Assembly: GCA_029288725.1 (NCBI GenBank)
Contig: JARIGS010000004.1
Span: 15,132-79,131 of the forward strand
Reading direction: 5' to 3'
DNA from: Candidatus Nomurabacteria bacterium
Lineage (GTDB): Bacteria; Patescibacteriota; Minisyncoccia; Phycocordibacterales; UBA9973
Length of the DNA stretch: 64,000 nt
The notes beneath the pieces are model-generated. The model searched no databases. It saw only the letters and a list, made by a program, of their open reading frames with translations, and was not told the DNA's origin. Each line of letters begins with the position of its first letter. Position 1 is the stretch's first letter. Positions 27,046 through 46,892 of this stretch are shown here, piece by piece. Position numbers and translations under genes: made by a program.

Positions 27046-27063
27046 AAATTAATTTACAACTAT

Positions 27064-30000
27064 ATGGAAGAAGACACAAACCCAGCCGTCGCTAAAGCTA
27101 TGGCGAGCAAAGAAAAATCACAACGTGCACAGACCGAGGAGCGGATCCTCGCATTTTGGCAGCAGGAACATATTTTTGAAAAGACCTTGGAAAAGGATGC
27201 CCCAAAGGGGGAGTATATTTTTTATGAAGGACCACCGACTGCCAATGCCAAGCCGGCATTGCACCACCTGGAGTCTCGCGCATTCAAGGACGTTATTCCT
27301 CGATACAAGACCATGCAGGGGTATCGTGTGCCGCGTCGTGCCGGATGGGATACGCACGGTTTGCCAGTAGAATTGCAGATTGAAAAGAAATTGGGTCTTA
27401 CTTCCAAGAAAGAGATCGAGGCGTATGGTGTCGCACAGTTCAATAAGGAATGTAAGGATAGTGTTTTCACCTACATCAAGGACTGGGAAGACTTTACCGA
27501 CCGCATCGGTTACTGGGTTGATAAGAAAAGCGCGTACTATACGTTTGATACGAATTACATTGAATCAGTCTGGCATATCTTGTCGACCGTAAACAACAAG
27601 GGCCTTGTCTACAAAGACTTCAAGGTCCTGCCGTGGTGCCCACGTTGCGGTACAGCGCTCTCAAGTCATGAATTGGCACAGCCAGGCGCATATATGGACG
27701 TGAAGGATTTGTCAGTGACAGCAAAGTTTAAAGTTGTTGGACAGGATAATACCTACATCCTCGCTTGGACTACTACACCGTGGACATTGCCAGGGAATGT
27801 CGGTTTAGCTGTTGGGGCGGATATTGATTATGTTGCAGTAGAAAAAGATGGAGAAACGCTGATCCTTGCAAAGGAGCGTATGGAAGTGCTCGGCGGCGAC
27901 CTTACGGTGATAAAAGAAATGAAAGGCAAAGATCTTGTTGGCCTTTCCTATGAACCGCTTTATCCATATCTTGCGAATCTTATCGCTGGTGACGAAGCAA
28001 AGAAAATGGATGCAGCATATAAGGTCTATCCAGCAGATTTCGTTACTACCACTGATGGTACCGGTATCGTACACACAGCCGTAATGTATGGTGCTGATGA
28101 CTTTGATTTGGGAACGGCAGTTGGTTTGCCAAAGTTTCATACCGTTGATGATACAGGGCATTTCATTGCCGGTACTGATTTTCTTGGGGGGCGATTTGTG
28201 AAGGATGAGGAAGTGGCTGTCGATATCATTAAAGACCTTGCGCATCGGGGATTGCTGTTCAAGAAGGAAAAATATGAGCACTCTTATCCGCATTGCTGGC
28301 GTTGTAAGACTCCATTGCTCTACTATGCCCGTGATTCATGGTACATCGCGATGTCAAAAATGCGTGATGAGCTAGTAAAGGAAAACGAGACCATCAACTG
28401 GGAACCGGCTCACATCAAGCAGGGGCGCTTTGGCGAATGGCTGAAGGACCTTAAGGATTGGGCGATTTCTCGTGAACGATACTGGGGTACGCCATTGCCG
28501 ATTTGGCAGGCAGCCGATGGTGAGCGACTATTTGTTGATTCCGTTGCAACATTGAAGCAATACATCAAGAAGTCAGGCAATACGTACTTCATCATGCGCC
28601 ATGGCCAGACTGAGCACAACCTCAAAGGATTGTGGAATTTCGGTGACACCACTGATCCGTTGACTGATGCAGGAAGGGAGCAGGTAGTGGCAAGCGCCGC
28701 TATGTTGAAGGATAAAAAGATTGACCTGATCATCACTTCACCGTTTGCCCGTACGCTGGAAACGGCAACACTGGTAGCGGCACGAATTGGATTGACTGAG
28801 GAAAATATCATTACCGATAGTCGCATCGGTGAGTGGAATGTCGGCGCAGCATTTGATGGCAAACCAATGGATGAGTTCTTTGCTATTCGCAATGCTCAGG
28901 CTGATCGATATGGGTTCAAAACCGAAGATGGTGAATCCTATGCTGACCTTATCAAGCGGGCAGGGGATTTTCTCTACGATATTGAAAAAAAATATGAAGG
29001 CAAAACAATTCTGATTGTCTCTCATGGTGGCGTTGATCGTGCGATGGATCTGATCTCGCAGGGTCTTTCAATGAGAAATCTGTTTGAACAGAGTCGCGCG
29101 TATCAGAACTTTGCCAATGCCGAAGTGCGGCAGATTGATTTTGCTCCCATGCCGCACAATGAACAATATGAGCTTGATCTGCACCGCCCGTTTATTGATG
29201 ACGTTGTGCTGGTCAAACCGGCAACTGACATGTCAGGAGAGGCAAGGGAATTCAGACGCGTGAAGGAAGTGATGGATGTCTGGTTTGACTCAGGGTCAAT
29301 GCCATTTGCACAGGATCATTATCCCTTCGGGCTACGCCCTCAGGGTCTGACGACCCATACAACCCAAGAACTTGCGTATCCGGCGGACTTTATCTCAGAA
29401 GCGATTGATCAGACCCGTGGATGGTTCTACACCTTGCATGCTATTGGAACATTGATGGGTCGTGGCAAGGCGTATAAAAACGTTATTTGTCTTGGTCATA
29501 TCCTTGATGCCGAAGGCAAGAAAATGTCGAAGTCCATCGGTAACATCGTTGATCCGTGGCAGGAAATGGGCCGTTTCGGTGTCGATACGTTGCGTTTGTG
29601 GATGTACTCAGTTAATCAGCCGGGGGATTCAAAAAACTATGACCCAAAGACCGTGATGGAAATGGAGCGTCAGACATTTGGCCTGCTGTATAACGTCCTT
29701 TCATTTTATGAACTCTATCGTGATACAGAGTTAGAGGTTCAATCTCTCAGTGAATCAACCAACGTATTGGATCAGTGGATCATTGCTCGTCTCAATATTT
29801 TGATCATCATCTGTACTGATGGTTTAGATCATTACAAAACGATGGAACCAGTACGAGCGATTCGTGATTTCATTGGTGACCTTTCAACGTGGTATGTGCG
29901 TCGATCGCGTGAGCGATTGAAGGGAGAAGGTCGCGTTTTAATGGACGGTACGCGACACGATTCCGCAGAATCGGCTAAAGCGACTCTGTACCATATTCTT

Positions 30001-30615
30001 AAAACACTTGCTCAATTACTTGCGCCATTTGCGCCATTCGCGGCAGAGGATATATGGGGTCACTTAAAACATTCTTCTGATACAGTATCGGTCCACCTAT
30101 CATCATGGCCTACGGTTGTACCTACTTCTATAGATGGAGTAATACTATTGGAAAACATGATCACTGTCCGTAGCATCTGTACAATTGGTAACGCCCTTCG
30201 TAAGAAACTGGCAATTCCAGTTCGTCAGCCATTGCAGTCTATTACCGTGAAAGGTGAGGCATTGCCTCAAGAGTATGTGGCATTGATCATGGATGAATTG
30301 AATGTGAAGGAAGTAGTGTTTAATACCGACCTAGAAACTGAAGCCGAGCTTGATACTACTATCACACCCGCTCTCAAAGCCGAGGGTGACTATCGTGAAC
30401 TTGTGCGTGCAGTACAGGACTTGCGCAAGACAAAAGGCTTAACACCGAGTGATGAGATTACCATCACGCTTAGCCCTGCCGGAGAATCATTGCTCACACC
30501 GTTCATGGAGGATTTCAAAAAAACCGTCCTTGCAACCGAGGTGAATTTTGCAGAAAATGAGGGGGAAGCAATTACGATCGGAGATCGGACTATGGAAATA
30601 ATCCTTACGGCATAA
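27064..30615 (+). CDS. ileS: Isoleucyl-tRNA synthetase (type-2/T. thermophilus-like), unusually long at 1183 aa because of an inserted ~200-aa histidine-phosphatase (PGAM-like) domain. The HIGH motif is degenerate.
   Basis: 'FYEGPPTANAKPALHH' (HIGH position reads ALHH), CP1 editing region, 'WCPRCGT', 'RERYWGTPLPIW', 'DVWFDSGSMPF', 'KKMSKSIGN'. Start refined to ATG 27064. Confidence 0.9.
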   Translation: MEEDTNPAVAKAMASKEKSQRAQTEERILAFWQQEHIFEKTLEKDAPKGEYIFYEGPPTANAKPALHHLESRAFKDVIPRYKTMQGYRVPRRAGWDTHGLPVELQIEKKLGLTSKKEIEAYGVAQFNKECKDSVFTYIKDWEDFTDRIGYWVDKKSAYYTFDTNYIESVWHILSTVNNKGLVYKDFKVLPWCPRCGTALSSHELAQPGAYMDVKDLSVTAKFKVVGQDNTYILAWTTTPWTLPGNVGLAVGADIDYVAVEKDGETLILAKERMEVLGGDLTVIKEMKGKDLVGLSYEPLYPYLANLIAGDEAKKMDAAYKVYPADFVTTTDGTGIVHTAVMYGADDFDLGTAVGLPKFHTVDDTGHFIAGTDFLGGRFVKDEEVAVDIIKDLAHRGLLFKKEKYEHSYPHCWRCKTPLLYYARDSWYIAMSKMRDELVKENETINWEPAHIKQGRFGEWLKDLKDWAISRERYWGTPLPIWQAADGERLFVDSVATLKQYIKKSGNTYFIMRHGQTEHNLKGLWNFGDTTDPLTDAGREQVVASAAMLKDKKIDLIITSPFARTLETATLVAARIGLTEENIITDSRIGEWNVGAAFDGKPMDEFFAIRNAQADRYGFKTEDGESYADLIKRAGDFLYDIEKKYEGKTILIVSHGGVDRAMDLISQGLSMRNLFEQSRAYQNFANAEVRQIDFAPMPHNEQYELDLHRPFIDDVVLVKPATDMSGEAREFRRVKEVMDVWFDSGSMPFAQDHYPFGLRPQGLTTHTTQELAYPADFISEAIDQTRGWFYTLHAIGTLMGRGKAYKNVICLGHILDAEGKKMSKSIGNIVDPWQEMGRFGVDTLRLWMYSVNQPGDSKNYDPKTVMEMERQTFGLLYNVLSFYELYRDTELEVQSLSESTNVLDQWIIARLNILIIICTDGLDHYKTMEPVRAIRDFIGDLSTWYVRRSRERLKGEGRVLMDGTRHDSAESAKATLYHILKTLAQLLAPFAPFAAEDIWGHLKHSSDTVSVHLSSWPTVVPTSIDGVILLENMITVRSICTIGNALRKKLAIPVRQPLQSITVKGEALPQEYVALIMDELNVKEVVFNTDLETEAELDTTITPALKAEGDYRELVRAVQDLRKTKGLTPSDEITITLSPAGESLLTPFMEDFKKTVLATEVNFAENEGEAITIGDRTMEIILTA
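28561..29163 (+). other. Histidine-phosphatase superfamily (phosphoglycerate-mutase-like) domain inserted in-frame inside ileS.
   Basis: Branch-1 signature 'FIMRHGQTEHN' (RHGxT) and second catalytic-His motif 'ILIVSHGGVDRAM'. Flanked by the conserved IleS blocks 'WGTPLPIW' upstream and 'DLHRPFIDD...DVWFDSGS' downstream. Confidence 0.75.
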
Positions 30616-31965: not shown

Positions 31966-33852
31966 ATGGCAGATGACCACATCGATCACCTTGGCGAATT
32001 GGAGAAACGTCTCTATGCACGCGATCCGGAAAATGTTCCTAAAAGAACGTTTGGCATCTTGCGTCCTGAACGGCAAAATGTCACATCAGCATGGGGACAG
32101 ACCGCTGTGCCTAAAACTCAGACCGTGCCAAAGAGCGGAGCGGGAGGCTATCGTCGCTTCTTTATTTTCTCCCTCATTTTTTTCCTGCTTGCATTAGGGG
32201 CTGCGGCATTCAGCATCTATCGCGGGGCGTCTACACTTTCGAGTAAGAACGTTGATATTTCAATATTGGGGAATTCTTTTGTGGCGGCCGGTGACACCCT
32301 GCCATTACAGGTAGAGGTTGCCAATAGCAATTCAGCCGCATTACTCGATGCCAAGTTGTCATTGGAGTATCCCAAGGGGGCTGATGATGGATCAGGAAGT
32401 GATACTGCTCATGTCGAGCAGGACATGGGAACGGTCAATGCCGGTCAGACTAAAAGCCAATCCTTCTCAGTCGTGCTGTATGGCCAACAGGGTACTTCTC
32501 AGACCATTACCGCAACATTTTCATATCAGTTAAAAAATTCCAGCGCCGTCTTTCAAAAGACCAAGACCTTTTCGGTCATGATCAGTTCCAGTCCATTGAC
32601 CTTAACGGTTGACGGGCCCACTTCCATTGCGGCCAATCAGTCTTTTGAGCTTTCATTGAATAATAGCTTCACCAGCACTTCGCCTTTGAACAATGTCATT
32701 ACTCGCGTGGAATATCCAAATGGATTCGTCTTTGCGTCTGCTGATCCCGCTCCGACGGGAGGGAACAATGTCTGGGCATTGGGTGATTTGGAAAGCGGCA
32801 CCAATCGCACGATTGTGATCAGGGGAAAGCTGACCGGTGAGGAAAATGAACAGAAGTCATTTCGCGTCTATGTCGGCACGCCGGCATCCGCTACTGACAC
32901 TTCCATTGCTACCGTCTATAACTCGGCTTTGCAGACGATTACTCTTGCCAACCCGTTCATTGATGCACAGCTCAACGTCAATGGCATAAAGACTGACATC
33001 ATTCCTGTATCAGTCGGGGATACTTCAAACGGTACTATTTCATGGGCCAATACGTCTGCAACGACCATTACTAATCCAACCTTCACGCTTTCTCTCCAAG
33101 GTACTGGAGTTGATCCAGACAGTGTCACTGCAAGCAATGGATACTATGATCCGGCAAGCAATACCATTACCTGGAATGCCGATTCAGACAAAGATCTAGC
33201 AACACTGTCACCGGGCCAGACGGGCAGTCTATCATTCACCTTCCTATCAAAGGCCACTGATACCAGCGACGTTGGCCTGCACCTGTCAGTTCAGGGAACA
33301 TTCCCAGAGAACAACTACCAGCAGCAGACGATCAATGACATTGATGTGAAGACCGTGCGATACAGTGCACACCTGCAATTTGCGGCACAGTCATTGTATT
33401 CAGTTGGACCAATCAAAAATACTGGACCGTATCCTTCAAAGGCCAATCAGGTTACTACCTATACCATTACCTGGACTGCTCGTCCTTCTGAAAATCCGCT
33501 CACGAACATGGTCGCCAGTGCCGTCCTTCCTCCTGGAGTAACATGGGTTGGTGTCGTGTCCCCGCAATCTGAACCCGTCAGTTATGCCAGTGACACTCGG
33601 ACGGTGACATGGAATGCCGGCGTGATGCCGCAGGCCACCAGTACACCAAAAGCCAAGACTGTTTCGTTTCAGATTTCGGTCAAACCAACGAAGGATCAGG
33701 TTGGACAGGAATTGCCCCTACTCGGTGAGACGACCGTAGTGGCAACCGATGCCACTGCCAACGTGCCGTTGACCGTCACCCGTCCCGCTCTTACTAACAC
33801 ACTGTCCACTGACCCTGTATATAGTCAAGGAAAAGAGCATGTGTTACCATAG
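31966..33852 (+). CDS. Membrane-anchored cell-surface protein with repeated beta-rich (DUF11/CARDB-like) domains.
   Basis: Cytoplasmic N-terminus, TM 'FFIFSLIFFLLALGAAAFSIY', then repeated Thr/Ser/Asn-rich beta modules. Confidence 0.5.
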   Translation: MADDHIDHLGELEKRLYARDPENVPKRTFGILRPERQNVTSAWGQTAVPKTQTVPKSGAGGYRRFFIFSLIFFLLALGAAAFSIYRGASTLSSKNVDISILGNSFVAAGDTLPLQVEVANSNSAALLDAKLSLEYPKGADDGSGSDTAHVEQDMGTVNAGQTKSQSFSVVLYGQQGTSQTITATFSYQLKNSSAVFQKTKTFSVMISSSPLTLTVDGPTSIAANQSFELSLNNSFTSTSPLNNVITRVEYPNGFVFASADPAPTGGNNVWALGDLESGTNRTIVIRGKLTGEENEQKSFRVYVGTPASATDTSIATVYNSALQTITLANPFIDAQLNVNGIKTDIIPVSVGDTSNGTISWANTSATTITNPTFTLSLQGTGVDPDSVTASNGYYDPASNTITWNADSDKDLATLSPGQTGSLSFTFLSKATDTSDVGLHLSVQGTFPENNYQQQTINDIDVKTVRYSAHLQFAAQSLYSVGPIKNTGPYPSKANQVTTYTITWTARPSENPLTNMVASAVLPPGVTWVGVVSPQSEPVSYASDTRTVTWNAGVMPQATSTPKAKTVSFQISVKPTKDQVGQELPLLGETTVVATDATANVPLTVTRPALTNTLSTDPVYSQGKEHVLP

Positions 33853-35294: not shown

Positions 35295-35432
35295 TTACTT
35301 GTCCTGGACAAGTCCTTTACGGTTTACATCTCTGGTGTACCACTTAAACCATGCATACAGAGTGCAACCGATTATTAATCCCACAGTAATATATCCTTCT
35401 TTTGTCATGGAAAAACCTGTTTCTTTCACCAT
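35295..35432 (-). CDS. Candidate 45-aa small membrane protein. Not in the ORF track.
   Basis: ATG at 35430-35432 (minus) is preceded by 'GGAGAAAGAGGT' at 6-8 nt spacing, an unusually good SD for this window. Product 'MVKETGFSMTKEGYITVGLIIGCTLYAWFKWYTRDVNRKGLVQDK' has one TM helix. Confidence 0.25.
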   Translation of the reverse strand: MVKETGFSMTKEGYITVGLIIGCTLYAWFKWYTRDVNRKGLVQDK

Positions 35433-35494
35433 ACCTCTTTCTCCACAATCTTGTCAATTTTGCATAAAAAGGTGATTTCGGCTTTAATGGGGGC

Positions 35495-36766
35495 ATGAAA
35501 GTTATCGAAAAAACACTTCCTAATGGATTGCGTGTGGTCATGGTACCGCAGGCTGATGCTGCTACCGCGACTGTACTGATCTTGGTCGGTGCAGGGTCAA
35601 AGTACGAAACAAAAAGGGAAAATGGCCTGTCGCATTTTTTGGAGCACATGTTTTTTAAAGGCACCACGCTTCGTCCAACGGCAAAGATTATTTCCGAACA
35701 GCTCGACAATCTCGGTGCCGTATCAAATGCATTCACGTCACATGAATACACTGGGTACTATGTTAAGGGCAATCCGAAGCACACGGAAACATTCATCGAT
35801 GTGCTGAGTGATATTTACTTGCACTCACTGTTTTCAGAAAAGGAAATTGAAAAGGAGAAGGGCGTGATCATTGAAGAGATCAACATGTATGAAGACATGC
35901 CGCAGCACAAAGTATGGGATGTGTTATTCGCAACGATGTACGGTGACCAACCAGTAGGGTGGCCGATTTCTGGAACTAAGGAACACGTGCGCAATTTTTC
36001 GCGAAAAGATTTTCTGCGCTATCAAAAGGAGCACTACACGTCGAGCAACACGGTCATCACTATTGCCGGTGCATTTGATGAAAAGAAAATATTTGCTGCC
36101 ATCAAGAAACAATTTGGTACAGTTGCAATGACTGATGCAAAAGATAAAAAGAAGGTCCGTGATACGCAAAAGGCATTTCAGCAAAAAGTTTTCCACAGGA
36201 AGACTGATCAGGCACACCTCGCATTGGGCTTCAGATCACCCGCTTTAGGACACAAAGATGGTCCTACGGCAAGTCTTTTGGCGACAATGTTAGGGGGAGG
36301 AATGAGCGCTCGGCTGTTCCAGGAGCTACGTGAAGAGCTTGGTGTGGCGTACTATGTTCGGGCGGAACATGACCCCTTTACGGACCACGGCATGTTTACA
36401 ATTAGCGCCGGAATCACCACTAATCGATTGACAGAGGTACTTGATTGTATTGTAGCTGTGTTACAGGATTTGAAAAATAACCCTATAAACAAAGAAGAAT
36501 TGACAAAAATACAGGAATACAGTGTAGGGATGATGCGTTTGGGGCTAGAATCCAGTGACAGTATCGCTGGATTTTATGGCAGCCAATTGCTGCTCAAAAA
36601 AGGCTACAAGACCCCCGAACAACTGACAAAAGAGTACCTCAGCGTGACCCCAGAGGACCTCAAAAGGGTGGCAAAAAAGATCTTTGTTTCGACCAGTGCA
36701 ACCCTCGTTTTAGTCGGTCCTTTTGATGAAAAAAAACTGATCGAAAACCCTCTAAAAAACCTTTAG
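35495..36766 (+). CDS. M16-family zinc metallopeptidase (pitrilysin/insulinase-like).
   Basis: Inverted zinc-binding motif 'HFLEHMFFKGT' (HxxEH) and downstream E. Confidence 0.85.
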   Translation: MKVIEKTLPNGLRVVMVPQADAATATVLILVGAGSKYETKRENGLSHFLEHMFFKGTTLRPTAKIISEQLDNLGAVSNAFTSHEYTGYYVKGNPKHTETFIDVLSDIYLHSLFSEKEIEKEKGVIIEEINMYEDMPQHKVWDVLFATMYGDQPVGWPISGTKEHVRNFSRKDFLRYQKEHYTSSNTVITIAGAFDEKKIFAAIKKQFGTVAMTDAKDKKKVRDTQKAFQQKVFHRKTDQAHLALGFRSPALGHKDGPTASLLATMLGGGMSARLFQELREELGVAYYVRAEHDPFTDHGMFTISAGITTNRLTEVLDCIVAVLQDLKNNPINKEELTKIQEYSVGMMRLGLESSDSIAGFYGSQLLLKKGYKTPEQLTKEYLSVTPEDLKRVAKKIFVSTSATLVLVGPFDEKKLIENPLKNL

Positions 36767-36815
36767 AAATAGTTTATTATTGGTAATTTGTGGAGTATAC
36801 TTATGAAGTATATTT

Positions 36816-39800
36816 ATGCACCTCAGTTCCCAACGATTCAATCGGATTATTGCCATCCTCGCCATCCTCTCGACGGTGAGCGTTTTTGCGTATAGAGCCG
36901 CTGCGTCTTCGTTGCCGGGTGCCTTCCTCGGATCAAAAATTACGGTCGGTGACACCAACAACACCTATGCCATTGCCGACACCAACTACCTCGAAGGAGG
37001 ACACATGCAGGTGGCAACCCATGCGGCTTTGTTGGCCATCACTCGTGAGCGTCGCGAAGTCGGCATGCTTGTCACTGTCGTCGATGATGACACGGGAACA
37101 GTGGGAAATCAGACCGTAACCTATCGTCTGATCAGCAATCCAACTGCGGATGGTTCAGGAGGAACCGCAACACCAACAACCGATGCAAACTGGACAGTGA
37201 TCATTCCTTCACTTGGTGGAAACGGAGGTAAGTTCTTGACGACTGATGGTACGACCGTAAGCTGGGCAACGGTCAGTGGCGGAGGAGGCGGTGGTACCTA
37301 TACTGCTGGTACTGGTTTGACACTCACCGGCAGTGCGTTCTCCGTGAACACTTCACAGAATATTGCAACCCTCTCTAATCTCACCACTGACGGTTTTGTA
37401 AGAACTACTGGTGCGAATGGCACGCTTACTTCTGCACCACTTTCATCTGCAGAAGTTGCCAGTGCGCTTGGGTACACCCCGTACAATGCATCAACCAATT
37501 CTTCTGGGTACATTGCCGGCAATCTTACCGGTGCGATTACTTCCGTAGGCAATGCTACCTCACTTGGTTCATTTACCTCTGCAAATCTCAGCGGTGCACT
37601 CACTGATGAGACGGGAAGTGGGGCAGCAGTATTTGCCAACTCACCAACATTCGTGACGCCAACACTCGGTGCCGCAAATGCGACATCAGTCAATGGCTTG
37701 TCACTTACTGCAAATCCAACTGGTTTTGCCATTGCTGGTGGTAGTACTACTTCAAAGACTCTTACCATTTCAAATTCATTAACACTTGCTGGTACTGACG
37801 GCTCAACGCTCAACATCGGCACTGGTGGCACGCTTGGTTCTGCAGCCTTCACCAACGCTTCTGCGTATGAAGTGCCGCTAACGTTTAGCACTGGACTCAC
37901 CAGAACAGGTAATACCATTACGGTGAATGCATCACAAAATATTTCTACACTCTCAAACCTCACCTCAAACGGTTTGATTAAGACAACAGGAGGAACGGGG
38001 GCGCTTTCGATTGCGGCCGCTGATATTGATTACTCTACACCAACTGGTGTTGAGACAATTACCAATAAGGATTTTACCTCTGGTACCAACACTTTCCCAA
38101 CATTCAACCAGAATACGACCGGTAGTGCGGCAACATTAACCACAGCTCGATTGATTGCCGGCAACAGCTTCAACGGCTCAGCCAATGTGCCGTTTGCAAA
38201 CAAATTCATTGTTCAGGGTACGAGTGATGCTGGTCTGACCGGCGCCCAGTTCCTTGGTGCATTGGCAACAGGCTTATTAAAAAACACGACCACCACTGGC
38301 GTACTGTCAGTCGCTACTCCTGGTAGTGATTATGAAGTGCCGCTGACATTTTCAACAGGACTGACACGCACCGTTAACACCATCACTGTCAATACTTCAC
38401 AGAACATTTCCACACTCTCAAATCTCACCTCGAACGGTTTCGTCACCACGTCTGGTGGTACGGGCGCACTTTCTGTCACCGGATCAACGGGGTCTGGCAA
38501 TGTCGTGCTTGCAACATCTCCAACATTGGTAACACCGGTATTGGGTGCTGCTACCGCAACAAGTATCAATAAAGTTGCCTTTACCGCTCCCGCAACTGGT
38601 GCAACGTTGACTATTGCTGATGGCAAGACGCTTACTGCATCAAACTCCCTTACCTTTGCCGGTAGTGATGGATCGACATTGAATGTTGGTAGTGGAGGAA
38701 CATTGGGAACTGCGGCATATACCAGTTCATCAGCGTATGAAGTGCCGCTAACATTCAGTACTGGTCTTACTCGTACTGTTAACACCATCACTGTTAACAC
38801 TTCCCAGAACATCGCGACCCTTTCAAACCTCACTTCAAACGGTTCAGTCCAGACATCCGGAGGCAACGGTACGCTTTCCGTCGTTGCTAATACCGGTACC
38901 GGTAACAATGTCCTTGCGAATTCACCAAGTCTCACTAGTCCCTCTTTTTCAACAATTGTAAATACTGGTACACTGACACTCCCTACTTCTACCGATACGC
39001 TGGTTGGTCGTGCAACAACTGACACACTAACCAACAAAACTATAAGTGGATCAAACAATACACTGACCAATATTCCAAACAGTGCTCTTACCAACTCATC
39101 ATTAACGCTTGCTCTCGGCACGTCTGGTACTGACGTAAACTGGGGTGCATCAACGGTCTCATTGGGCGGTACTGCAACGCTCAACATTCCTGATGCCTCT
39201 GCCACCGCTCGAGGCCTTATCACTACTGGCGCGCAGACCATTGCCGGTGCAAAGACATTTTCAAGTTCAGCGACATTCTCAGCATATACGTCAGGTTCAG
39301 TGCCTTATATTTCAACTGGTGGATTGCTAGCGCAGGACAATGCGAATTTCTTCTATGACGGAATAAACCACCGATTGGGATTGGGCACCACCTCACCGTC
39401 TGCCTTCATCCATGTTCTAGGAACAACCGAGCAGCTTCGTCTCGGATATGATGCAAGCAACTATGGATCATTTACCACTGGCAACACTGGAGGGCTTACC
39501 GTTACCACCACCGGAACGAATGCAAATGTTAACCTCAGTCCTGCTACGGGCATTGTCACCGTGAACGGTACTATCCCCGAGCAGCGCTTCGTCACCTCGG
39601 GCGACAGCAACTACGCGCGCTTCCAGCGCTCAACCGCAAGCGACCAGTTCGTCGGCAAGAACAACGTCTTGCAGTCAGGGGGAGTAGGAAAGGCAATTAC
39701 CGTAACACTTGGTGCCAATCGATATCTTCAAGCTTCTGATGCAGGGTTGCCTACTGGTAGTTCCATTACGTTAAGTTTCAGTGAATGGTATAAATGGACT

Positions 39801-42800
39801 AGTGGCAGCGTAAACGTGCTCTTCTCATACGGTCCCGCTACAAGTAATAATCAGCTTACTTTTTACCTTACTAGTACGACCGGTGTCCTCGCTACGACTG
39901 GTGGAAGTCCGCTGGGTACTGTTTCAATGTCCGGTACTCCTAATGATGGTAACTGGCACCATATTGTAGTGGTGATTAACGGCAGTTCATTGACTGTATA
40001 TACTGATAATATCTCCCACACGGCCACGCTTACTGCTTACAACATCACTTTAAGTGGTACCTTCCAAAACTATCAACCAACAACTGCCTTGGCAGGAGCA
40101 CTAGACCAGGAGCTTGTATATAATAGAGTGCTCAGCCGCACCTCCGGTGCCGGTTCCTCCGACGAAATTGCGCAACTGTACAATGGAGGATCCGGTACTG
40201 CCTCAATCCCGACGACAGGCCTCATTCGCCGCTACGACTTCGAAGAGGGCACTGGCACGACAGCAAATGACACCAACCCAAATGGCACCCAGTATCCATT
40301 GACATTAATTAACGGTCCGACGTGGACCTTGAACGGCTTCGTGCCAGTCAGTGCAAGCAGCACCGAGTCCCCATTCTTCTCAGTCAGTGACGGCCTCACC
40401 AACGCCGAGCGCGGCATCGCGACCTGGGGCGACTTCAACGGCCGCAACCAGCAGCAGGGTAAGTGGTTCCAGTGGTTCCAGAACGGCGTGTACCCACTGG
40501 CAAGCAACAACAGCGGACAGTGGCTGTTCAATCCGAATAATAGTTCAAATACGGCACCAACAATTGCTTCCACCATCGACGTGGCCGGTAACCTTACGAT
40601 TGGCGCGACATATGCGGGAGTGAACGCCGCGCCGACCAACGGCCTGCTGGTGCAGGGCAACGTGGGTATTGGTACGACTACTGCAAACGGTACTCTTTCA
40701 CTGGGGGGCAACCAGACTGCTGCTGCCTGGGGTACTACTGGTATCAACTTCAGCACGGCAGCTGCAACCTACACTAACTCCTCAACCGCAGCAAATGGAA
40801 CAGTGGCCAATAGCGCCGTCAACTCTTTCGGTGTTCCAACTCTTGCTGCTTCCAACACGGGTGTTACTAGCACTACTGCATCAACTTTGTATATAGCAGG
40901 GGCACCGGTAGCGGGAACAAACATGACCATTACCAATCCATTGGCCCTCTATGTTGCAACAGGCAACGCCTCATTTGGTGGTAATGTTGGCATTGGTACA
41001 ACTAGTCCGACGGCAAGACTTCAGCTTGGTGCTGGTACTGCTACTGCGGGTACTGCGCCACTGAAGTTCGCCAGTGGAACTAATCTTGCTACACCAGAAG
41101 CCGGTGCGATGGAATTTGACGGTACGCAGCTATATTTCTCACCGTCAACTACTCGAAACATTGTCGCACAGGTTTCAGGAGGCACCCCACTAACGGCAGG
41201 ATCAATTCCGTTTGCAACCGCAAGTGGTTATTTCACACAAAACAATAATAATTTCTACATTCAAAACAGCTCATCTACTCCAATGACCCTTGCTACCAAC
41301 ACCAACGTTGCGTTTAGTGTGAACACGAACGGTGACTTTACGGGTACCGATGCTGTTAATATCTATGGTCAGTATGATGCGTATCTGCCTAACAGCGCCA
41401 TCACCAATTCATTGACTGGTTTGAACACTGATGGAGCGTTTCCAGGATACGGGGTTTCTTCATCCCGCGGCACAGGACAGTCACCAGTACAGCTCCAGAC
41501 CGGTGACCTAGTTGGTGGTTTCTTTGGCTTTGGTGCCCAAGGTGCGTCGTCACCAACGTATCAAAACCTTGGTGGTATGGCTGTGACGACCATAGGAAGT
41601 TCGACCAATAACCTTGGTGGACAGTTGAATTTCTATACTAAGGCTGACGGCGGATCATTAACTCAGCACTTGAGCATTGATAATGCTGGTGTGCTCTCGG
41701 TATCAAGTACCACCCCCGAGCAGCGCTTCGTCACCTCGGGCGACAGCAACTACGCGCGCTTCCAGCGCTCAACCGCAAGCGACCAGTTCGTCGGCAAGAA
41801 CAACGTATTGCAGTCAGGGGGAAGTGGTCAGGCAATAGTCTTCAACTCCGCTTCTAGTCAGTATTTTACTGCCCCTGATACTGGCCTGCCAACAGGATCA
41901 AGTATTGCCTTAACGGTATCGCAGTGGATCAAGTATAACGGGGGCGTACCGGCCAACCTTCCGTTGCTGTATTATGGAACGGGCTCAACCAGTCTGACTG
42001 CCTTTATAGTAACTAACAGTGGACAAGTCGCTGTGTATAATGGTAATACAGCACTAAGTTCTGCCTTTGGCGTGCGTATTGATGATGGTAAGTGGCACCA
42101 TGTTGTCCTTACAATAAACGGCAGTGCATTGACTGTCTACATAGACAATGTGTCATATACTGGTACGTTGCCTGCCTATACCGTAGCGACAGGAGCGTCA
42201 ATGGTAAACAATAATGTTGCGAACTCGACGTTTTATTTCTCCTATTCACTTGATCAATTATTGGTGTACAACAGAGTGCTCAGCCGCACCTCCGGTGCCG
42301 GTTCCTCCGACGAAATTAGCCAATTGTATAATTCTGGTGCGGGTACCGCTTCCATTTCTACTACCAACCTGCTTCGCCGTTACGACTTCGAGGAGGGCAC
42401 TGGCAGTACTGTAAGCGACACCAATCCGAATGGTACGCAATACCAAATGACACTGGTAAATAGCCCATCTTGGACATTGAACGGCATCGTGCCTATTGGC
42501 GCTAGTAGTACAGAGACATCATTCTTCGCTATCAAAGACGGCCTCACCAACGCCGAGCGCGGCATCGCGACCTGGGGCGACTTCAACGGCCGCAACCAGC
42601 AGCAGGGTAAGTGGTTCCAGTGGTTCCAGAACGGTTCATACCCACTGGCAAGCAACAACAGCGGACAGTGGCTGTTCAATCCAAGCAACAATACTAACGG
42701 CGTTCCGACTATTGCCTCAACTATCGACGTTGCCGGCAACATAACCGTTGGTGCGATATATGCGGGAGTGAACGCCGCGCCGACCAACGGCCTGCTGGTG

Positions 42801-44336
42801 CAGGGCAACGTGGGTATTGGCACTGCTGCTACGACCGTCGCATCCAAACTCCATATTCTTACTACTGCACTTGGAACTACGCAGGCAAACTCTTCTGGTA
42901 TTTACCTGCAAAACAATACTGCGGCAGCTGCAGGTGCGCAACAAATTTCTCCGGGTATCGTGTTTGAAGGTCAGGGATGGAAAACAAATGCAACGGCTGC
43001 ATCACAGGCAGTAGACTTCCGCGAATTCGTTGTACCGGTGCAGGGAACTGCGAATCCTACCGGCTATCTCTCATGGGGTTCTTCAGTCAACGGTGCCGGA
43101 TATACTGACGGATTGCTCGCATTAACGACTGGTGGAAACCTCGGTATCGGCACTACTGCTCCATCAGGCGCACTTTCAGTCGGAGGCAACCGTACCGCTT
43201 CCGCCTGGGGCGTGAACGGTATTAACCTACAAACTGTTGCGGCAACGTACACTGACTCATCGACTGCTGCCAACGGTACCGTTACTAATACCGCCATCAA
43301 CTCATTCGGCATCCCAACGGTGGCGGCGACAAACAGTAGTGTTACCTACACCAACTACTCCAATCTCTACATTGCCGGTGCGCCATTAGCCGGAACAAAT
43401 GTAAGCCTTACTAACCGTTTTGCATTGAACGTCGCCGGTGGCAGCTCATTCTTTGGCGGTAGTGTCGGCATCAGTACTGCGGGTACGCCATTCACCCCAA
43501 GCTTTACGCTGCAGGTTGGGGATGGCGCGGTTAGTGGCATCGTTGCTCGTTTCCAAAACAGCGCCGGTACTTGTGACATTAACCCGCTTACCAGCTCATT
43601 GGCTTGTTCTTCTGATATGAACCTGAAGAAAAATATTACTAACTTGTCCGATGGTAGCGCATGGAGCTTCAGCAACAATATTTCTGTTGCCAATGATAGT
43701 GATCTTGATAAGATCCTTGCCCTTAATCCGGTGACTTACAACTGGAATGTTGAACAGGACACCGACCAAAAGCATATCGGTTTCATTGCTCAGGATGTGC
43801 AGCAGATCTTCCCTGATTTGGTCGCAACTGATCCAAACACCCACTTGCTGTCATTGAACTACATCGGCTTCATTCCATATACCATTGAGGCAATCAAGGA
43901 AATAAACTTCAACATCACCGCCATCGACGATCTTACCAAGAGCAATACCTGGAGAGACGCATTGATTGGATGGTTTGCTGATAGCGCCAACGGCATCAAG
44001 TCATTGGTTGTTCATGACAAGGTCTGTGTCGATGACCAATGTTTGACCAAGAGTGACATTCAGCGATTGTTGCAGCTTGAAAACCAGCAGGGAGGTACGA
44101 CTACGGTATCAAACTCATCATCAAATACGACAAGTAGTACTACCACCGACAGTAGTACTGATACTACGTCACAAACCCAAAGTCCTGATGTGACTGCACC
44201 AGCACCAGATACCACTACTACCAGTACCGCTTCTCCTGCGCCAGACACGACTACTTCAACGGATACTTCTAGTTCCAGTACCACTGACACGAGCAGCACT
44301 CCGCCCCCAGCTGATACTACTAGTGCGAGCCAATAA
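36816..44336 (+). CDS. Giant (2506 aa) secreted multi-repeat protein: signal peptide, about 4 N-terminal ~140-aa repeats, two ~715-aa modules each carrying a LamG/ConA-like lectin domain, a phage tail-fibre-type intramolecular chaperone (Peptidase S74) domain, and a Ser/Thr-rich tail.
   Basis: Signal 'IIAILAILSTVSVFAYRAAAS'. Repeats 'YEVPLTFSTGLTRT.NTITVN.SQNI.TLSNLTSNG' occur three times with this motif (~nt 37866, 38332, 38740), with a fourth divergent copy at ~nt 37328 lacking the YEVPLTFS start. LamG motif 'LVYNRVLSRTSGAGSSDEI.QLYN' occurs twice. S74 chaperone motif 'LNPVTYNWNVEQDTDQKHIGFIAQDVQQIFPDLV'. Confidence 0.8.
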   Translation: MHLSSQRFNRIIAILAILSTVSVFAYRAAASSLPGAFLGSKITVGDTNNTYAIADTNYLEGGHMQVATHAALLAITRERREVGMLVTVVDDDTGTVGNQTVTYRLISNPTADGSGGTATPTTDANWTVIIPSLGGNGGKFLTTDGTTVSWATVSGGGGGGTYTAGTGLTLTGSAFSVNTSQNIATLSNLTTDGFVRTTGANGTLTSAPLSSAEVASALGYTPYNASTNSSGYIAGNLTGAITSVGNATSLGSFTSANLSGALTDETGSGAAVFANSPTFVTPTLGAANATSVNGLSLTANPTGFAIAGGSTTSKTLTISNSLTLAGTDGSTLNIGTGGTLGSAAFTNASAYEVPLTFSTGLTRTGNTITVNASQNISTLSNLTSNGLIKTTGGTGALSIAAADIDYSTPTGVETITNKDFTSGTNTFPTFNQNTTGSAATLTTARLIAGNSFNGSANVPFANKFIVQGTSDAGLTGAQFLGALATGLLKNTTTTGVLSVATPGSDYEVPLTFSTGLTRTVNTITVNTSQNISTLSNLTSNGFVTTSGGTGALSVTGSTGSGNVVLATSPTLVTPVLGAATATSINKVAFTAPATGATLTIADGKTLTASNSLTFAGSDGSTLNVGSGGTLGTAAYTSSSAYEVPLTFSTGLTRTVNTITVNTSQNIATLSNLTSNGSVQTSGGNGTLSVVANTGTGNNVLANSPSLTSPSFSTIVNTGTLTLPTSTDTLVGRATTDTLTNKTISGSNNTLTNIPNSALTNSSLTLALGTSGTDVNWGASTVSLGGTATLNIPDASATARGLITTGAQTIAGAKTFSSSATFSAYTSGSVPYISTGGLLAQDNANFFYDGINHRLGLGTTSPSAFIHVLGTTEQLRLGYDASNYGSFTTGNTGGLTVTTTGTNANVNLSPATGIVTVNGTIPEQRFVTSGDSNYARFQRSTASDQFVGKNNVLQSGGVGKAITVTLGANRYLQASDAGLPTGSSITLSFSEWYKWTSGSVNVLFSYGPATSNNQLTFYLTSTTGVLATTGGSPLGTVSMSGTPNDGNWHHIVVVINGSSLTVYTDNISHTATLTAYNITLSGTFQNYQPTTALAGALDQELVYNRVLSRTSGAGSSDEIAQLYNGGSGTASIPTTGLIRRYDFEEGTGTTANDTNPNGTQYPLTLINGPTWTLNGFVPVSASSTESPFFSVSDGLTNAERGIATWGDFNGRNQQQGKWFQWFQNGVYPLASNNSGQWLFNPNNSSNTAPTIASTIDVAGNLTIGATYAGVNAAPTNGLLVQGNVGIGTTTANGTLSLGGNQTAAAWGTTGINFSTAAATYTNSSTAANGTVANSAVNSFGVPTLAASNTGVTSTTASTLYIAGAPVAGTNMTITNPLALYVATGNASFGGNVGIGTTSPTARLQLGAGTATAGTAPLKFASGTNLATPEAGAMEFDGTQLYFSPSTTRNIVAQVSGGTPLTAGSIPFATASGYFTQNNNNFYIQNSSSTPMTLATNTNVAFSVNTNGDFTGTDAVNIYGQYDAYLPNSAITNSLTGLNTDGAFPGYGVSSSRGTGQSPVQLQTGDLVGGFFGFGAQGASSPTYQNLGGMAVTTIGSSTNNLGGQLNFYTKADGGSLTQHLSIDNAGVLSVSSTTPEQRFVTSGDSNYARFQRSTASDQFVGKNNVLQSGGSGQAIVFNSASSQYFTAPDTGLPTGSSIALTVSQWIKYNGGVPANLPLLYYGTGSTSLTAFIVTNSGQVAVYNGNTALSSAFGVRIDDGKWHHVVLTINGSALTVYIDNVSYTGTLPAYTVATGASMVNNNVANSTFYFSYSLDQLLVYNRVLSRTSGAGSSDEISQLYNSGAGTASISTTNLLRRYDFEEGTGSTVSDTNPNGTQYQMTLVNSPSWTLNGIVPIGASSTETSFFAIKDGLTNAERGIATWGDFNGRNQQQGKWFQWFQNGSYPLASNNSGQWLFNPSNNTNGVPTIASTIDVAGNITVGAIYAGVNAAPTNGLLVQGNVGIGTAATTVASKLHILTTALGTTQANSSGIYLQNNTAAAAGAQQISPGIVFEGQGWKTNATAASQAVDFREFVVPVQGTANPTGYLSWGSSVNGAGYTDGLLALTTGGNLGIGTTAPSGALSVGGNRTASAWGVNGINLQTVAATYTDSSTAANGTVTNTAINSFGIPTVAATNSSVTYTNYSNLYIAGAPLAGTNVSLTNRFALNVAGGSSFFGGSVGISTAGTPFTPSFTLQVGDGAVSGIVARFQNSAGTCDINPLTSSLACSSDMNLKKNITNLSDGSAWSFSNNISVANDSDLDKILALNPVTYNWNVEQDTDQKHIGFIAQDVQQIFPDLVATDPNTHLLSLNYIGFIPYTIEAIKEINFNITAIDDLTKSNTWRDALIGWFADSANGIKSLVVHDKVCVDDQCLTKSDIQRLLQLENQQGGTTTVSNSSSNTTSSTTTDSSTDTTSQTQSPDVTAPAPDTTTTSTASPAPDTTTSTDTSSSSTTDTSSTPPPADTTSASQ
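39575..43860 (+). repeat. Tandem duplication of a ~2.15-kb coding module inside the giant gene (unit 1 ~39575-41712, unit 2 ~41713-43860), with several 42-108-nt islands that are 100% identical.
   Basis: Identical stretches: 39575-39667 and 41714-41806; 40125-40169 and 42273-42317; 40389-40485 and 42537-42633; 40492-40533 and 42640-42681; 40611-40672 and 42759-42820. Sequence between the islands is diverged. Confidence 0.85.
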
Positions 44337-44361
44337 CCATAACGTATGATAGGATACCACC

Positions 44362-45423
44362 ATGCATGACACACGAACCATCCGCATAAGCACTGACACG
44401 ATGATCCGCGGTATTTTGTTGATCGTGGCAGCGGTTATCCTCTTTAAAATCAAGGATATTTTGCTTCTCGTGCTTGTTTCCATAGTGATCGCTTCCTTTG
44501 TTGAGGCCGGGGTACGCATGTTCAAATCATGGGGCATTGACCGTACCTTGTCAGTACCGATTATCTTTACAGCGGTCATCGGTATGGTGACGGTACTGTT
44601 TTACACCTTTGTGCCGATTGTCATTCGGGAACTTTCTGGTGTCCTTACCTCATTACTGACGTATCTGCCAAGCAGTACGCCGGTAAGTAGCCAGTCCGTT
44701 GAAAGTGTCACGGCATTCATCGCAAATATTGCTCACCATACTTCGCTGACAGAATTATTGGGAAGTATCAAGACGAGTGCGTCTTCATTATCACAGGGGG
44801 CGACGACGTTTATCGGTTCAACATTCGGCAATTTGCTCGATGTGGTCTTGGTAGTGGTGATGTCATTTTATCTTTCTATCCAGGAGCGGGGGATTGATAA
44901 CTTCCTACGCATCCTTACACCGCTGAAGCATGAACACTATGTCGTGAACTTGTGGAATCGCACCCAGCACAAGATCGGGGTCTGGTTCAAAGGACAGCTC
45001 TTGCTCGGTCTGATCATGGGAGCAATTACTATCGTTGCATTGGCACTGTTGGGTGTGCAGTACTCATTTCTTATCGGCTGCGTGACTGGTATCGCCGAGC
45101 TTATTCCGTTTGGCATTATCTTTGCGGCCGTACCGGCCATTCTCTTTGCCATTATTGGCGGAGGATACATACTCGGTATCAAGGTATTGATCTTCTATAT
45201 TGTCGCTCATCAGGTTGAGGGCTATGTCCTTAGTCCGGTGGTGGCACATCGCACTGTTGGTATTCCGCCACTTGTCGTGCTCCTGTCATTCTTGATTGGC
45301 ATTACTGTTGCCGGATTCTGGGGCGCTATTATTGCCATTCCGGTGGCAGTATTTATCCTTGAATATCTCAGCGATGTTGAAAAACAAAAGCTCGTACCGA
45401 TTACGATAAACAAGCCTCAATAA
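44362..45423 (+). CDS. AI-2E family (UPF0118/PerM-like) transporter.
   Basis: Eight-TM pattern with the characteristic central and C-terminal blocks 'LIPFGIIFAAVPAILFAI' and 'SPVVAHRTVGIPPLVVLLS'. Confidence 0.75.
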   Translation: MHDTRTIRISTDTMIRGILLIVAAVILFKIKDILLLVLVSIVIASFVEAGVRMFKSWGIDRTLSVPIIFTAVIGMVTVLFYTFVPIVIRELSGVLTSLLTYLPSSTPVSSQSVESVTAFIANIAHHTSLTELLGSIKTSASSLSQGATTFIGSTFGNLLDVVLVVVMSFYLSIQERGIDNFLRILTPLKHEHYVVNLWNRTQHKIGVWFKGQLLLGLIMGAITIVALALLGVQYSFLIGCVTGIAELIPFGIIFAAVPAILFAIIGGGYILGIKVLIFYIVAHQVEGYVLSPVVAHRTVGIPPLVVLLSFLIGITVAGFWGAIIAIPVAVFILEYLSDVEKQKLVPITINKPQ

Positions 45424-45428
45424 CTTTT

Positions 45429-46892
45429 ATGGAAAAAACGTTTTACATTACTACCACGCTGCCATACGTGAATGCACCATTACATATGGGGCATGCTTTG
45501 GAATTTGTACGAGCAGACGCTATTGCTCGGTATAAAACCCTTCAAGGGTACGATGTATTCTTTAATACTGGAACCGATGAGCATGGTCAAAAAATCTATA
45601 CCAAAGCCGTAGAAAAAGGCGAAGACCCGCAGGTTTTTGTTGATAAAAATTTTGTTACGTTTAAGGAACAGGTAGGGGCATTTGGAATGCTTGAAAATCT
45701 GCACTATGTGCGCACGACTGATGAAGCACACATAAAGGCGGCGCAAGTATTTTGGACCAAGGTCTATGACAATGGTTATATTTATAAAAAGACATATCAG
45801 GCAAAATATTGTATCGGATGTGAGGCGGAGAAAACAGATTCCGAACTCGATGAAAACGGGCACTGCCTACTCCATCCTGGATTGGAGCTTGAAATAATCA
45901 ATGAGGAAAATTACTTCTTTAAGTTCTCTGAGTTTGGAGAAAAACTTTTGACATTCTATGAATCTAAGCCCCACTTTGTTTTGCCAGATTTCCGTTTTAA
46001 TGAAGTAAAGTCATTTGTAAAAAACGGTCTACAGGATTTTTCTATTTCGAGAATGAAGGAAAAAATGGCATGGGGGATACCCGTACCGGGAGACGACTCA
46101 CAAGTGATGTATGTCTGGTTTGATGCATTGGTGAATTATATCTCCACATTGGGCTATCCATTGCTTGAAGATAATTTTGAAAAGTATTGGGTACGAGGTA
46201 CTCCGCTTCAATATTGCGGAAAAGACAATACCCGTTTCCAGGCAATTATGTGGCAGGCAATGCTTATCGCCGCCGATCTGCCAAATTCAGATCAAATCGT
46301 TGTAAATGGATTTATCACTGGCGACAAGGGGATTCGCATGTCGAAAACATTAGGAAACGTAGTTGACCCCTTAGACATCGTACGGGAATATGGTACTGAT
46401 GTGTTGCGCTTTTTCCTTCTGAAGGAAATCTCGAGCTTTGAAGACAGCCCTTTTACCATTGAGCGTTTCAGAGAGTCATATCAGGCAAACTTGGCTAATG
46501 GCTTGGGCAACCTGGTCTCCCGCATCATGAAGATGGTGACGAATTATGAAGTGAACTATTTGTTGCCAACTGATGAAGATCTGCTTGAATTTGATGATGC
46601 AGTACCAGAGGATTTTCACACCAAGATTGATCAGTATGATCTCAAAGCAGCGATGGATGATATCTGGCGCGAAGTGAATTCGCTTGATTGGCTAATTCAG
46701 AACAAGGAACCGTTCAAATTGGCAAAGACCGATATGCCTGAAGCCCAGAGAATAGTAGGGGATTTGGCAATTCGTCTCTACATCATTGGATTCCTCTTGC
46801 AGCCATTTATGCCACAGACTGCTGAAACTATTATGAAGTTAGTGAAGGAGAAAAAGACTCCGGAGAAGCCTTTGTTTAATAGATTGGCATAA
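45429..46892 (+). CDS. metG: Methionyl-tRNA synthetase, short 487-aa form without the C-terminal tRNA-binding domain.
   Basis: 'TTTLPYVNAPLHMGHALE' (HIGH as HMGH), Cys knuckles 'CIGCE...GHCLLH', 'RMSKTLGN' (KMSKS). Confidence 0.9.
   Translation: MEKTFYITTTLPYVNAPLHMGHALEFVRADAIARYKTLQGYDVFFNTGTDEHGQKIYTKAVEKGEDPQVFVDKNFVTFKEQVGAFGMLENLHYVRTTDEAHIKAAQVFWTKVYDNGYIYKKTYQAKYCIGCEAEKTDSELDENGHCLLHPGLELEIINEENYFFKFSEFGEKLLTFYESKPHFVLPDFRFNEVKSFVKNGLQDFSISRMKEKMAWGIPVPGDDSQVMYVWFDALVNYISTLGYPLLEDNFEKYWVRGTPLQYCGKDNTRFQAIMWQAMLIAADLPNSDQIVVNGFITGDKGIRMSKTLGNVVDPLDIVREYGTDVLRFFLLKEISSFEDSPFTIERFRESYQANLANGLGNLVSRIMKMVTNYEVNYLLPTDEDLLEFDDAVPEDFHTKIDQYDLKAAMDDIWREVNSLDWLIQNKEPFKLAKTDMPEAQRIVGDLAIRLYIIGFLLQPFMPQTAETIMKLVKEKKTPEKPLFNRLA

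Follow-up and report, generated by a model that had tools for sequence, protein, structure and literature searches.

A giant, predicted Sec-exported protein combining two LamG modules with a variant tail-fibre-type S74 chaperone cassette in a Candidatus Nomurabacteria genome

The 64,000-nucleotide stretch of the Candidatus Nomurabacteria contig JARIGS010000004.1 that was analysed here (positions 15,132 to 79,131 of the forward strand; referred to as the window, with position 1 as its first letter) carries at 36816..44336, on the forward strand, one ATG-to-stop open reading frame (ORF) for a protein of 2506 amino acids (aa), which is the subject of this study. The best named relatives of the isoleucyl-tRNA synthetase (IleRS) encoded in the window come from Ca. 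Nomurabacteria, Ca. Paceibacterota, Minisyncoccia, and 'Patescibacteria group', and the genome is therefore assigned to a bacterium of the Candidate Phyla Radiation (CPR), Paceibacteria type. An original prediction, made from the nucleotide sequence without database searches, had described the product as a giant surface protein with LamG lectin modules and a self-cleaving chaperone domain, and had allowed for the gene being broken by frameshifts. No frameshift or internal stop was found within 36816..44336, i.e., the ORF is uninterrupted in the assembled sequence, and a 91,758-bp contig at NCBI encodes an identical 2506-aa protein. Both the S74 and the LamG matches, whose absence would have spoken against the prediction, lie above the Pfam curated cut-offs, and all domain scores of the giant protein are far above chance. 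No NCBIfam family was found for it.

Thr, Gly, Ser, Ala, and Asn dominate the composition of the giant protein. The GC content at third codon positions (GC3) of its gene is 0.48, inside the range of the neighbouring genes (0.41-0.54), and the raised overall GC of the gene was traced to codon position 2, where the excess mirrors the amino-acid composition. A recent foreign origin of the gene was considered as well and was rejected on the basis of this composition, the GC3 being equal to that of the neighbours.

The C-terminal domain that had been read as Peptidase-S74-like was recovered by Pfam as Peptidase_S74 (PF13884; E 1.7e-15, 57.4 bits against a cut-off of 22) at aa 2266-2336, with the string quoted for it in the original prediction at aa 2303, and PHROG tail-fibre families match aa ~2260-2370 by their own extreme C-termini. 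In an alignment of the C-terminal regions of 22 homologues (A1), S2266, D2267, and K2271 are invariant, as are the G and A of the GFIAQ motif; the putative autocleavage Ser, for which a search had been proposed, is thereby placed at S2266, together with the invariant K2271. Searched against the PDB, the A1 profile matches the long tail fibre distal subunit 6f45 (1.6e-15), the tail fibre 8jov (2.4e-14), the intramolecular chaperone auto-processing (ICA) domain of MYRF (7dc3, 9.6e-10), the GA-1 neck-appendage chaperone 3gud (1.2e-5), and the T5 L-shaped fibre 8hqz (2.4e-5). The SDxxxK motif of the giant protein aligns with those of 6f45, 8jov, and 3gud, and since the crystallised chain of 3gud starts at the released Ser (SDERHK) that is aligned to S2266, the scissile bond is predicted to lie between S2265 and S2266. 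PDB searches with single sequences, one query being the C-terminal 306 aa and the other aa 1-2200, returned low-complexity noise only. In an AlphaFold2 (AF2) monomer model, the core of the S74 domain reaches a predicted local distance difference test (pLDDT) score of 85-93, and Foldseek relates this model at probability 1.0 to MYRF ICA, the best solved match, and to viral models, of which 159 matched at E<=0.001 with annotations as ICA-domain, tail-fibre, or neck-appendage proteins. The template modelling (TM) scores of these matches, ~0.3-0.46, are low because a monomer model is compared with intertwined trimers. By analogy with the solved chaperones, trimerisation and autoproteolytic release of the S74 piece would be expected here as well.

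Judged from the homologues retrieved, this S74 domain belongs to a minority variant. The distance from the catalytic Ser to the protein end is 241 aa, compared with a median of 103 aa in the 118 best S74-profile hits, and the extension that follows the chaperone occurs in only three of those 118; matches to cultured phages end at ~aa 2376 and never cover it. The hairpin and helix of the extension are modelled by AF2 with a pLDDT of ~80. Shared with close relatives (P0002-4, 8, 9, 14, 17-19, 23, 27, and the gene on L001) are I) a Cys-X10-17-Cys loop before the cleavage site, II) the motif C-S/S-D-M-N-L-K-K-N-I, with the slash at the predicted site, III) an amphipathic helix (WRDAL..WFADSANGI), IV) a second Cys-loop hairpin plus helix, and V) a Ser/Thr/Pro/Asp-rich tail that often ends in Q. 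The Ser/Thr-rich tail of the original prediction is plainly present (aa 2401-2506 are 28% Thr, 21% Ser, 11% Asp, and 7.5% Pro), and similar tails are found in homologues. Should cleavage proceed as in phage S74 proteins, aa 2266-2506 would be removed and this tail would not be part of the mature fibre. The whole giant protein contains four Cys only, at positions 2253, 2264, 2404, and 2409, and none before residue 2253. They form two short-range pairs that are conserved in CPR-type homologues. With no other Cys in the protein, this pattern would fit a location outside the cytoplasm.

Upstream of this cassette lie the two large modules of ~715 aa that had been predicted: self-comparison and DNA repeats align aa 877-1430 with aa 1571-2252 at an offset of 713-716 aa. 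The ConA/LamG-like domain proposed for each module was likewise borne out, as Laminin_G_3 (PF13385) matches in two stretches (E 7.6e-16, 59 bits against a cut-off of 27.6), Laminin_G_1 and Laminin_G_2 also exceed their Pfam cut-offs, and the motif quoted for the domain occurs at aa 1100 and 1816. A profile built from 18 LamG cassettes (A2) matches the neurexin LNS domain (4.6e-18), an arabinanase LamG domain, an S-layer-domain protein, and pentraxins. The AF2 model of the LamG domain has a pLDDT of 74, and Foldseek relates it to SAP, CRP, PTX3, and neurexin LNS with target-normalised TM scores of 0.6-0.74; profile and fold searches thus confirm the LamG beta-sandwich jelly-roll fold. Between the two modules, the LamG cores are 27-53% identical and their flanks 73-93%, a pattern that fits diversified or swapped binding surfaces. 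The LamG domains are likely ligand (glycan) binding sites and may act as lectins. No catalytic domain other than S74 was detected with Pfam and NCBIfam.

Among 1.84 billion cluster representatives, the ~385-aa LamG cassette (aa ~910-1295) was found in 43 proteins at E<=1e-30 and in 311 at E<=1e-10, most of which hold one copy. Just one or two of 49 full-cassette LamG homologues have an S74 motif at their end and, conversely, only P0012, which also has a GH43 family match, carries the LamG cassette among the top 120 whole-protein relatives; by these counts, two LamG domains together with the CPR-type S74 cassette are a rare architecture. The best named homologue of the cassette, WP_066000226.1, is encoded on a Mucilaginibacter chromosome and is 58% identical to it over 388 aa (window 39543-40700), a likeness that suggests module exchange between phyla. 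The C-terminus of WP_066000226.1 itself consists of a different conserved domain (WPDYVF..HLP..PSA..LLKKIEELTLY).

At the other end of the protein, the signal peptide of the original prediction is supported by the single hydrophobic segment found, aa 8-30, with R7 and R10 ahead of it and A28-A29-A30 followed by S31 after it; the -3/-1 rule predicts cleavage by signal peptidase I after A28-A29-A30. The N-terminal domain that follows, here called class B, is rare and is common only to the giant protein, P0004 (87% identity), and P0023 (67%), proteins whose middle regions differ. It has no Pfam, PHROG, or PDB match (aa 31-150/31-160), and a metagenome scan for it recovered the P0023 contig as the only further locus. 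Sortase or lipoprotein anchoring was also considered and rejected, as an LPXTG motif, a C-terminal hydrophobic segment, and a lipobox Cys are all absent.

Repeat systems were located by tiled protein self-comparison and DNA repeat finding. The region behind the class B domain holds a 49-aa core ('YEVPLTFSTGLTRT..SQNI.TLSNLT' or 'YEVPLTFSTGLTRT...SQNISTLSNLTSNG') in three full copies (aa 351, 506, and 641) and one degenerate copy (~aa 161), seen at the DNA level as four copies of 147 nt that are spaced by 579, 465, and 405 nt, i.e., 193, 155, and 135 aa. Four repeats of ~140 aa had been proposed here; the count of four was right, and the spacing of the core, at 135-193 aa, is not uniform. A weak BppL_N match (Pfam) lies at aa 803-817. 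The coordinates of all features are listed in Table 1.

Table 1. Features of the giant gene, its junctions, and the gene cassette found upstream of related giants.
Feature	Position (nt)	Strand	Basis or remark
Signal peptide or signal anchor, aa 1-30 (MHLSSQRFNRIIAILAILSTVSVFAYRAAA, then S)	36816..36905	+	Sole hydrophobic segment; lipobox Cys absent
Class B N-terminal domain, aa 31-150 (LPGAFLGSKITVGD..NYLEGGHM..)	36906..37265	+	Matches P0004 and P0023 N-termini
Thr/Ser/Gly-rich fibre region, aa 151-876, four 49-aa core copies plus variable spacers	37266..39443	+	Self-comparison, DNA repeats
49-aa core copies	37287-37433, 37866-38012, 38331-38477, 38736-38882	+	DNA repeat finding
Widely shared module, aa 414-520 (..NQNTTGSAATLTTARLIAGNSFNGSANVPFANKFIVQG..)	38055..38375	+	Matches in metagenome-assembled genomes and viral contigs
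Large module 1, aa 877-1430, LamG cassette plus 'GNVGIGT'-type fibre repeats	39444..41105	+	Homology to aa 1571-2252
LamG/pentraxin-like domain 1, aa 947-1123	39654..40184	+	Laminin_G_3 second stretch, profile, AF2, Foldseek
Linker between modules, aa 1431-1570	41106..41525	+	Internal counterpart not found
Large module 2, aa 1571-2252	41526..43571	+	Carries extra ~100-aa inserted module, aa ~2024-2121
LamG/pentraxin-like domain 2, aa 1660-1839	41793..42332	+	Laminin_G_3 best stretch, aa 1680-1824
Cys-X10-Cys loop, aa 2253-2264, just ahead of predicted cleavage site	43572..43607	+	Cys pair conserved in CPR-type homologues
Peptidase_S74 C-terminal intramolecular chaperone domain, aa 2266-2376	43611..43943	+	Pfam, PHROG, PDB profile, AF2, Foldseek
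Predicted Ser-Lys dyad S2266-D-M-N-L-K2271, scissile bond S2265/S2266	43611..43628	+	A1, PDB profile alignment
Post-chaperone extension, aa 2377-2430: amphipathic helix WRDALIGWFADSANGI, Cys2404-X4-Cys2409 hairpin, helix	43944..44105	+	Conserved in CPR-type homologues
Ser/Thr/Pro/Asp-rich low-complexity tail ending in Q, aa 2431-2506 plus stop	44106..44336	+	Composition
Upstream junction, 49-bp gap from M16 peptidase stop to giant gene start	36767..36815	+	Promoter-like match absent
Downstream junction, 25-bp gap before AI-2E transporter start codon	44337..44361	+	Terminator-like site absent
Six-gene cassette directly upstream of class A giants, in relatives	L001 40-5931; L011 3893-9900		PheT/FKBP locus

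The ORFs of the window that were scanned with Pfam encode housekeeping, cell-envelope, or uncharacterised proteins, among them PheRS, FKBP, NusG, ArgRS, RNase J, IleRS, RecO, GlyRS, and an M16 peptidase, and further an AI-2E transporter, MetRS, TatD, S6, RecA, and FtsK. A promoter and terminator scan of 35300-45600 gave counts not above those of shuffled sequence, with nothing at the junctions of the giant gene, where no repeats stand out either; the gene may be co-transcribed with its neighbours. Three close relatives (IleRS 76-81% identical) keep the same order IleRS-RecO-627aa-GlyRS-M16-AI-2E-MetRS-TatD-S6, with M16 and AI-2E ~30-47 bp apart and no gene between them, which makes the giant gene a strain-specific single-gene difference at this site. 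The S74 giants of relatives are found at another locus, PheS-PheT-[six genes]-GIANT-FKBP-SIMPL-SecE-NusG, and P0023 is also located upstream of FKBP, there without the six genes. In the window, PheT adjoins FKBP (12719-15151), i.e., the locus that holds the giant and cassette in relatives is empty here. The six-gene cassette goes with giants bearing a class A N-terminus (VPQIINFQGRL...) and encodes two paralogous secreted proteins, a C-terminally transmembrane-anchored protein, a protein with Big_6 and Dockerin_1 domains, and a pair of C-terminally anchored paralogues. This cassette may serve to anchor or assemble the fibres. Across the family, the giants have conserved N- and C-terminal ends and mosaic middles, an organisation that resembles that of phage fibres. 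Together with the strain-variable presence, such mosaic middles are typical of receptor-binding or adhesive proteins.

The same locus evidence bears on whether the giant protein is a viral structure, i.e., the tail fibre of a prophage, of a tailocin or extracellular contractile injection system (eCIS), or of a contaminating virus, instead of a cell-surface protein. That its C-terminal domain matches phage tail-fibre families speaks for a viral fibre, and S74 genes are known as shell components of bacterial eCIS operons, with a presumed fibre role (PMC8213781). In addition, the widely shared module at aa 414-520 and neighbouring repeat modules of aa 151-876 recur in 22 IMG/VR contigs. The neighbouring genes in these contigs are mostly PHROG-negative, with one endolysin and one virion structural protein, so that a viral nature of the contigs is weakly supported, and only two records of cultured phages match the N-terminal repeats, barely. 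The case for repeat modules shared with phages thus depends on contigs of uncultivated viruses, and some cellular DNA could have been misbinned among these. The aa 414-520 module is also 55-80% identical in metagenome-assembled genomes labelled Mycobacterium, Bacteroidales, Elusimicrobia, Ignavibacteriota, Omnitrophota, and Acidobacteriota, a conservation across phyla that appears unusually high for a fibre segment. Against a viral fibre, the gene sits with gaps of 49 bp and 25 bp within a conserved housekeeping array, its codon usage is native, the N-terminus carries a signal segment in place of a virion-attachment domain, and the length of 2506 aa far exceeds that of typical phage fibres. 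Whereas the S74 genes of eCIS adjoin sheath, tube, and baseplate genes, none of these was seen among the scanned window ORFs, nor were capsid, terminase, tail, sheath, or baseplate genes among the window ORFs scanned with Pfam or inferred by synteny. A viral origin of the protein is accordingly regarded as very improbable.

Compared with known systems, the giant protein combines traits of several groups. With the phage S74 chaperones (K1F endosialidase, T5 pb1 8hqz, GA-1 3gud, and S16-type 6f45) it shares PF13884, the S-D-x-x-x-K and G-F-I-A-Q motifs, and the position of the domain C-terminal to a long repetitive fibre region. It differs from these phage fibres in the housekeeping array around its gene, in the Sec signal segment, in the Cys-X10-Cys loop before the domain, and in the helix, Cys-loop hairpin, and Ser/Thr/Pro tail after it, and it is 2-5 times longer than the S74 proteins compared. 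MYRF ICA is an example of the same domain in a cellular, non-viral use, likewise with downstream sequence; however, MYRF is a eukaryotic transcription factor of the endoplasmic reticulum membrane whose downstream segment is a transmembrane helix, whereas the downstream segment of the giant protein is predicted to be soluble, Cys-bridged, and of low complexity, and its upstream part would be an extracellular fibre. The closest group comprises giants of Ca. Paceibacterota and Nomurabacteria (HTH93413.1, i.e., P0008, and P0002, P0003, P0004, P0014, and P0023) that the NCBI annotation pipeline PGAP names 'tail fiber domain-containing protein'. They have the same CPR-type C-terminal cassette (49-67% identical), repeat modules in common, and a signal segment, and their lengths (1441-4261 aa) are comparable. 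The present protein is set apart from them by its LamG cassette, which occurs twice, by its class B N-terminus, which most of them lack, and by its locus, M16/AI-2E instead of PheT/FKBP, with the upstream six-gene cassette not in the window. Lastly, very large surface-targeted proteins of other Patescibacteria (Absconditicoccaceae) with adhesion domains, including concanavalin A, have been proposed as host-interaction factors (PMC13059738). These are longer than 1500 aa and have a signal peptide or transmembrane segment and adhesion-type domains, all of which is true of the giant protein; that study concerns a different CPR class, and the terms S74 and tail fibre are absent from it.

Taken together, the giant protein is probably a cellular, not viral, Sec-exported and trimeric tail-fibre-like surface protein that is matured by self-cleavage and likely adhesive. 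Its precursor would be exported via Sec by the N-terminal signal segment, after which the S74 domain would bring three chains into register and nucleate the folding of the long fibre. The Ser2266/Lys2271 dyad would then cut between S2265 and S2266 and free a C-terminal piece of 241 residues (chaperone, Cys-loop extension, and Ser/Thr-rich tail), leaving a mature trimeric fibre of ~2235 residues whose tip would be the disulfide-closed loop C2253-C2264. Each chain would display two LamG/pentraxin-type domains with diverged cores as likely glycan binding sites, and the fibre would be kept on the cell either by the class B domain (aa 31-150) or by a signal anchor that stays uncleaved. The long tail fibre of T4 measures ~0.05 nm per residue, and by that analogy the mature fibre would be roughly 100 nm long. 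Its most likely role would be adhesion to another cell or surface. Attachment to a partner or host cell, specifically, is suggested by the LamG heads, the variability between strains, and the published giant surface proteins of CPR bacteria.

Several observations weigh against this adhesive, self-cleaving surface fibre, and they also define its main competitors. The weakest link is cell retention. A search of the giant protein for a C-terminal LPXTG motif, lipobox, SLH domain, or C-terminal transmembrane segment gave no recognisable anchor, and with the signal peptide cleaved, the mature fibre might just be released; retention would need the uncleaved signal anchor or docking by the class B domain. 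Homologues of the six cassette genes that may anchor or assemble the related fibres occur nowhere in the 64-kb window. Furthermore, the model of the C-terminal region is a monomer with a pLDDT of 71 and low TM to the solved trimers, the S74 domain is at the extreme C-terminus in 115 of the 118 best profile hits and not here, so that the outcome of processing could differ, and an episymbiotic life of the lineage is assumed.

The position of the S74 domain leads to a first competing explanation, in which the domain is kept as an uncleaved trimerisation or folding module, or in which a MYRF-like cleavage frees the fibre from a temporary C-terminal tether to the envelope. The ~130 further conserved residues after the domain, which distinguish the giant protein from nearly all other S74 proteins, would be explained in this way, and the best solved fold match is MYRF ICA, where the downstream sequence is a membrane tether. 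However, the Ser-Lys dyad and its flanking motif are strictly conserved, which argues that catalysis is retained, and the tail is without any hydrophobic or known wall-binding segment; we consider this explanation improbable. The missing anchor leads to a second one, namely that the fibre, on the surface or secreted, serves some purpose other than host attachment, e.g., as an envelope or S-layer-associated spacer, as part of a matrix or biofilm, as a decoy for phages, or as a device that captures glycans for nutrient scavenging. The architecture is equally compatible with such roles, glycosidases also use LamG domains as carbohydrate-binding modules (cf. the A2 match to the arabinanase LamG domain and the GH43 match of P0012), and free-living Parcubacteria are reported in the title of one recent paper. 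On the other hand, a catalytic domain was not detected, and a gene that is strain-specific and mosaic, with LamG cores that have diverged, is better explained as a determinant of specificity than as a core structural element. A role other than host attachment is therefore judged unlikely, and it carries more weight than the uncleaved or tethered fibre.

Some other features of the window were recorded as well. The IleRS (27028-30615) contains a His_Phos_1 domain at aa 521-675, and the same insertion is present in all 120 best homologues; going by these, it is a lineage trait of the Paceibacterota/Nomurabacteria type. Between an LDcluster4-like gene and the IleRS gene lies a 369-aa acidic, coiled-coil-looking ORF (25640-26749) with a TTG start and no Pfam match; the relatives L034 and L035 lack any gene there, and it is thus a second window-specific difference. 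A 628-aa protein (31966-33852), negative in Pfam and NCBIfam, is kept between RecO and GlyRS in all relatives examined. At 55699-57786, a 695-aa secreted protein with a PG_binding_1 domain has a long Thr/Ser/Gly-rich beta-type region and ends in ...GQ like many of the giants. Finally, 58945-63868 encodes a tandem pair of Wzy_C (O-antigen-ligase-like) membrane proteins and, behind them, a GT11 glycosyltransferase. They are possibly a machinery for surface or protein glycosylation, and it may be speculated that the Ser/Thr/Pro tails are among its substrates.

The domain families, the NCBI name 'tail fiber domain-containing protein', and giant adhesion proteins of CPR bacteria are already known. 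The searchable literature yielded no paper on S74/intramolecular-chaperone proteins of this type in CPR or in non-phage bacteria, and neither an exported fibre family encoded on CPR chromosomes and bearing the extended S74 cassette, nor the combination with two LamG domains, nor the behaviour of the locus was found described there. If the giant protein were merely another repetitive surface protein, the value of the analysis would be limited to an annotation better than the present name. A wider proposal, tentative and rather doubtful as a whole, is that CPR bacteria of the Paceibacteria type make cellular tail fibres, i.e., Sec-exported giants that draw on one module pool with phage receptor-binding proteins and surface proteins of other phyla, the LamG cassette and the aa 414-520 module being examples, that would be matured by a lineage-specific S74 cassette with its extension as a temporary envelope tether, and whose genes would act as swappable specificity cassettes. 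If this were true, self-cleavage would arm or release the fibre in the manner of MYRF. One such swappable gene, with its rare N-terminal docking domain and its two LamG heads that have diverged, would have appeared here within a housekeeping operon. The canonical locus, which in relatives also holds the six-gene anchoring cassette (dockerin/cohesin-like), is empty, and a change of partner or host may lie behind this.

Apart from the type IV pili of Saccharibacteria, little has been established about the means by which ultra-small CPR bacteria recognise partner cells and stay attached to them, and the giant protein is a concrete candidate for this task. It offers handles for testing in the predicted cleavage site between S2265 and S2266, in two separable LamG modules, and in close relatives without the gene as a natural comparison. 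More broadly, fibre modules are common to CPR bacteria, other phyla, and viral contigs, and the intramolecular-chaperone solution of phages for long trimeric fibres is predicted to be used, in a distinct cassette form, by exported cellular proteins in a major bacterial radiation.

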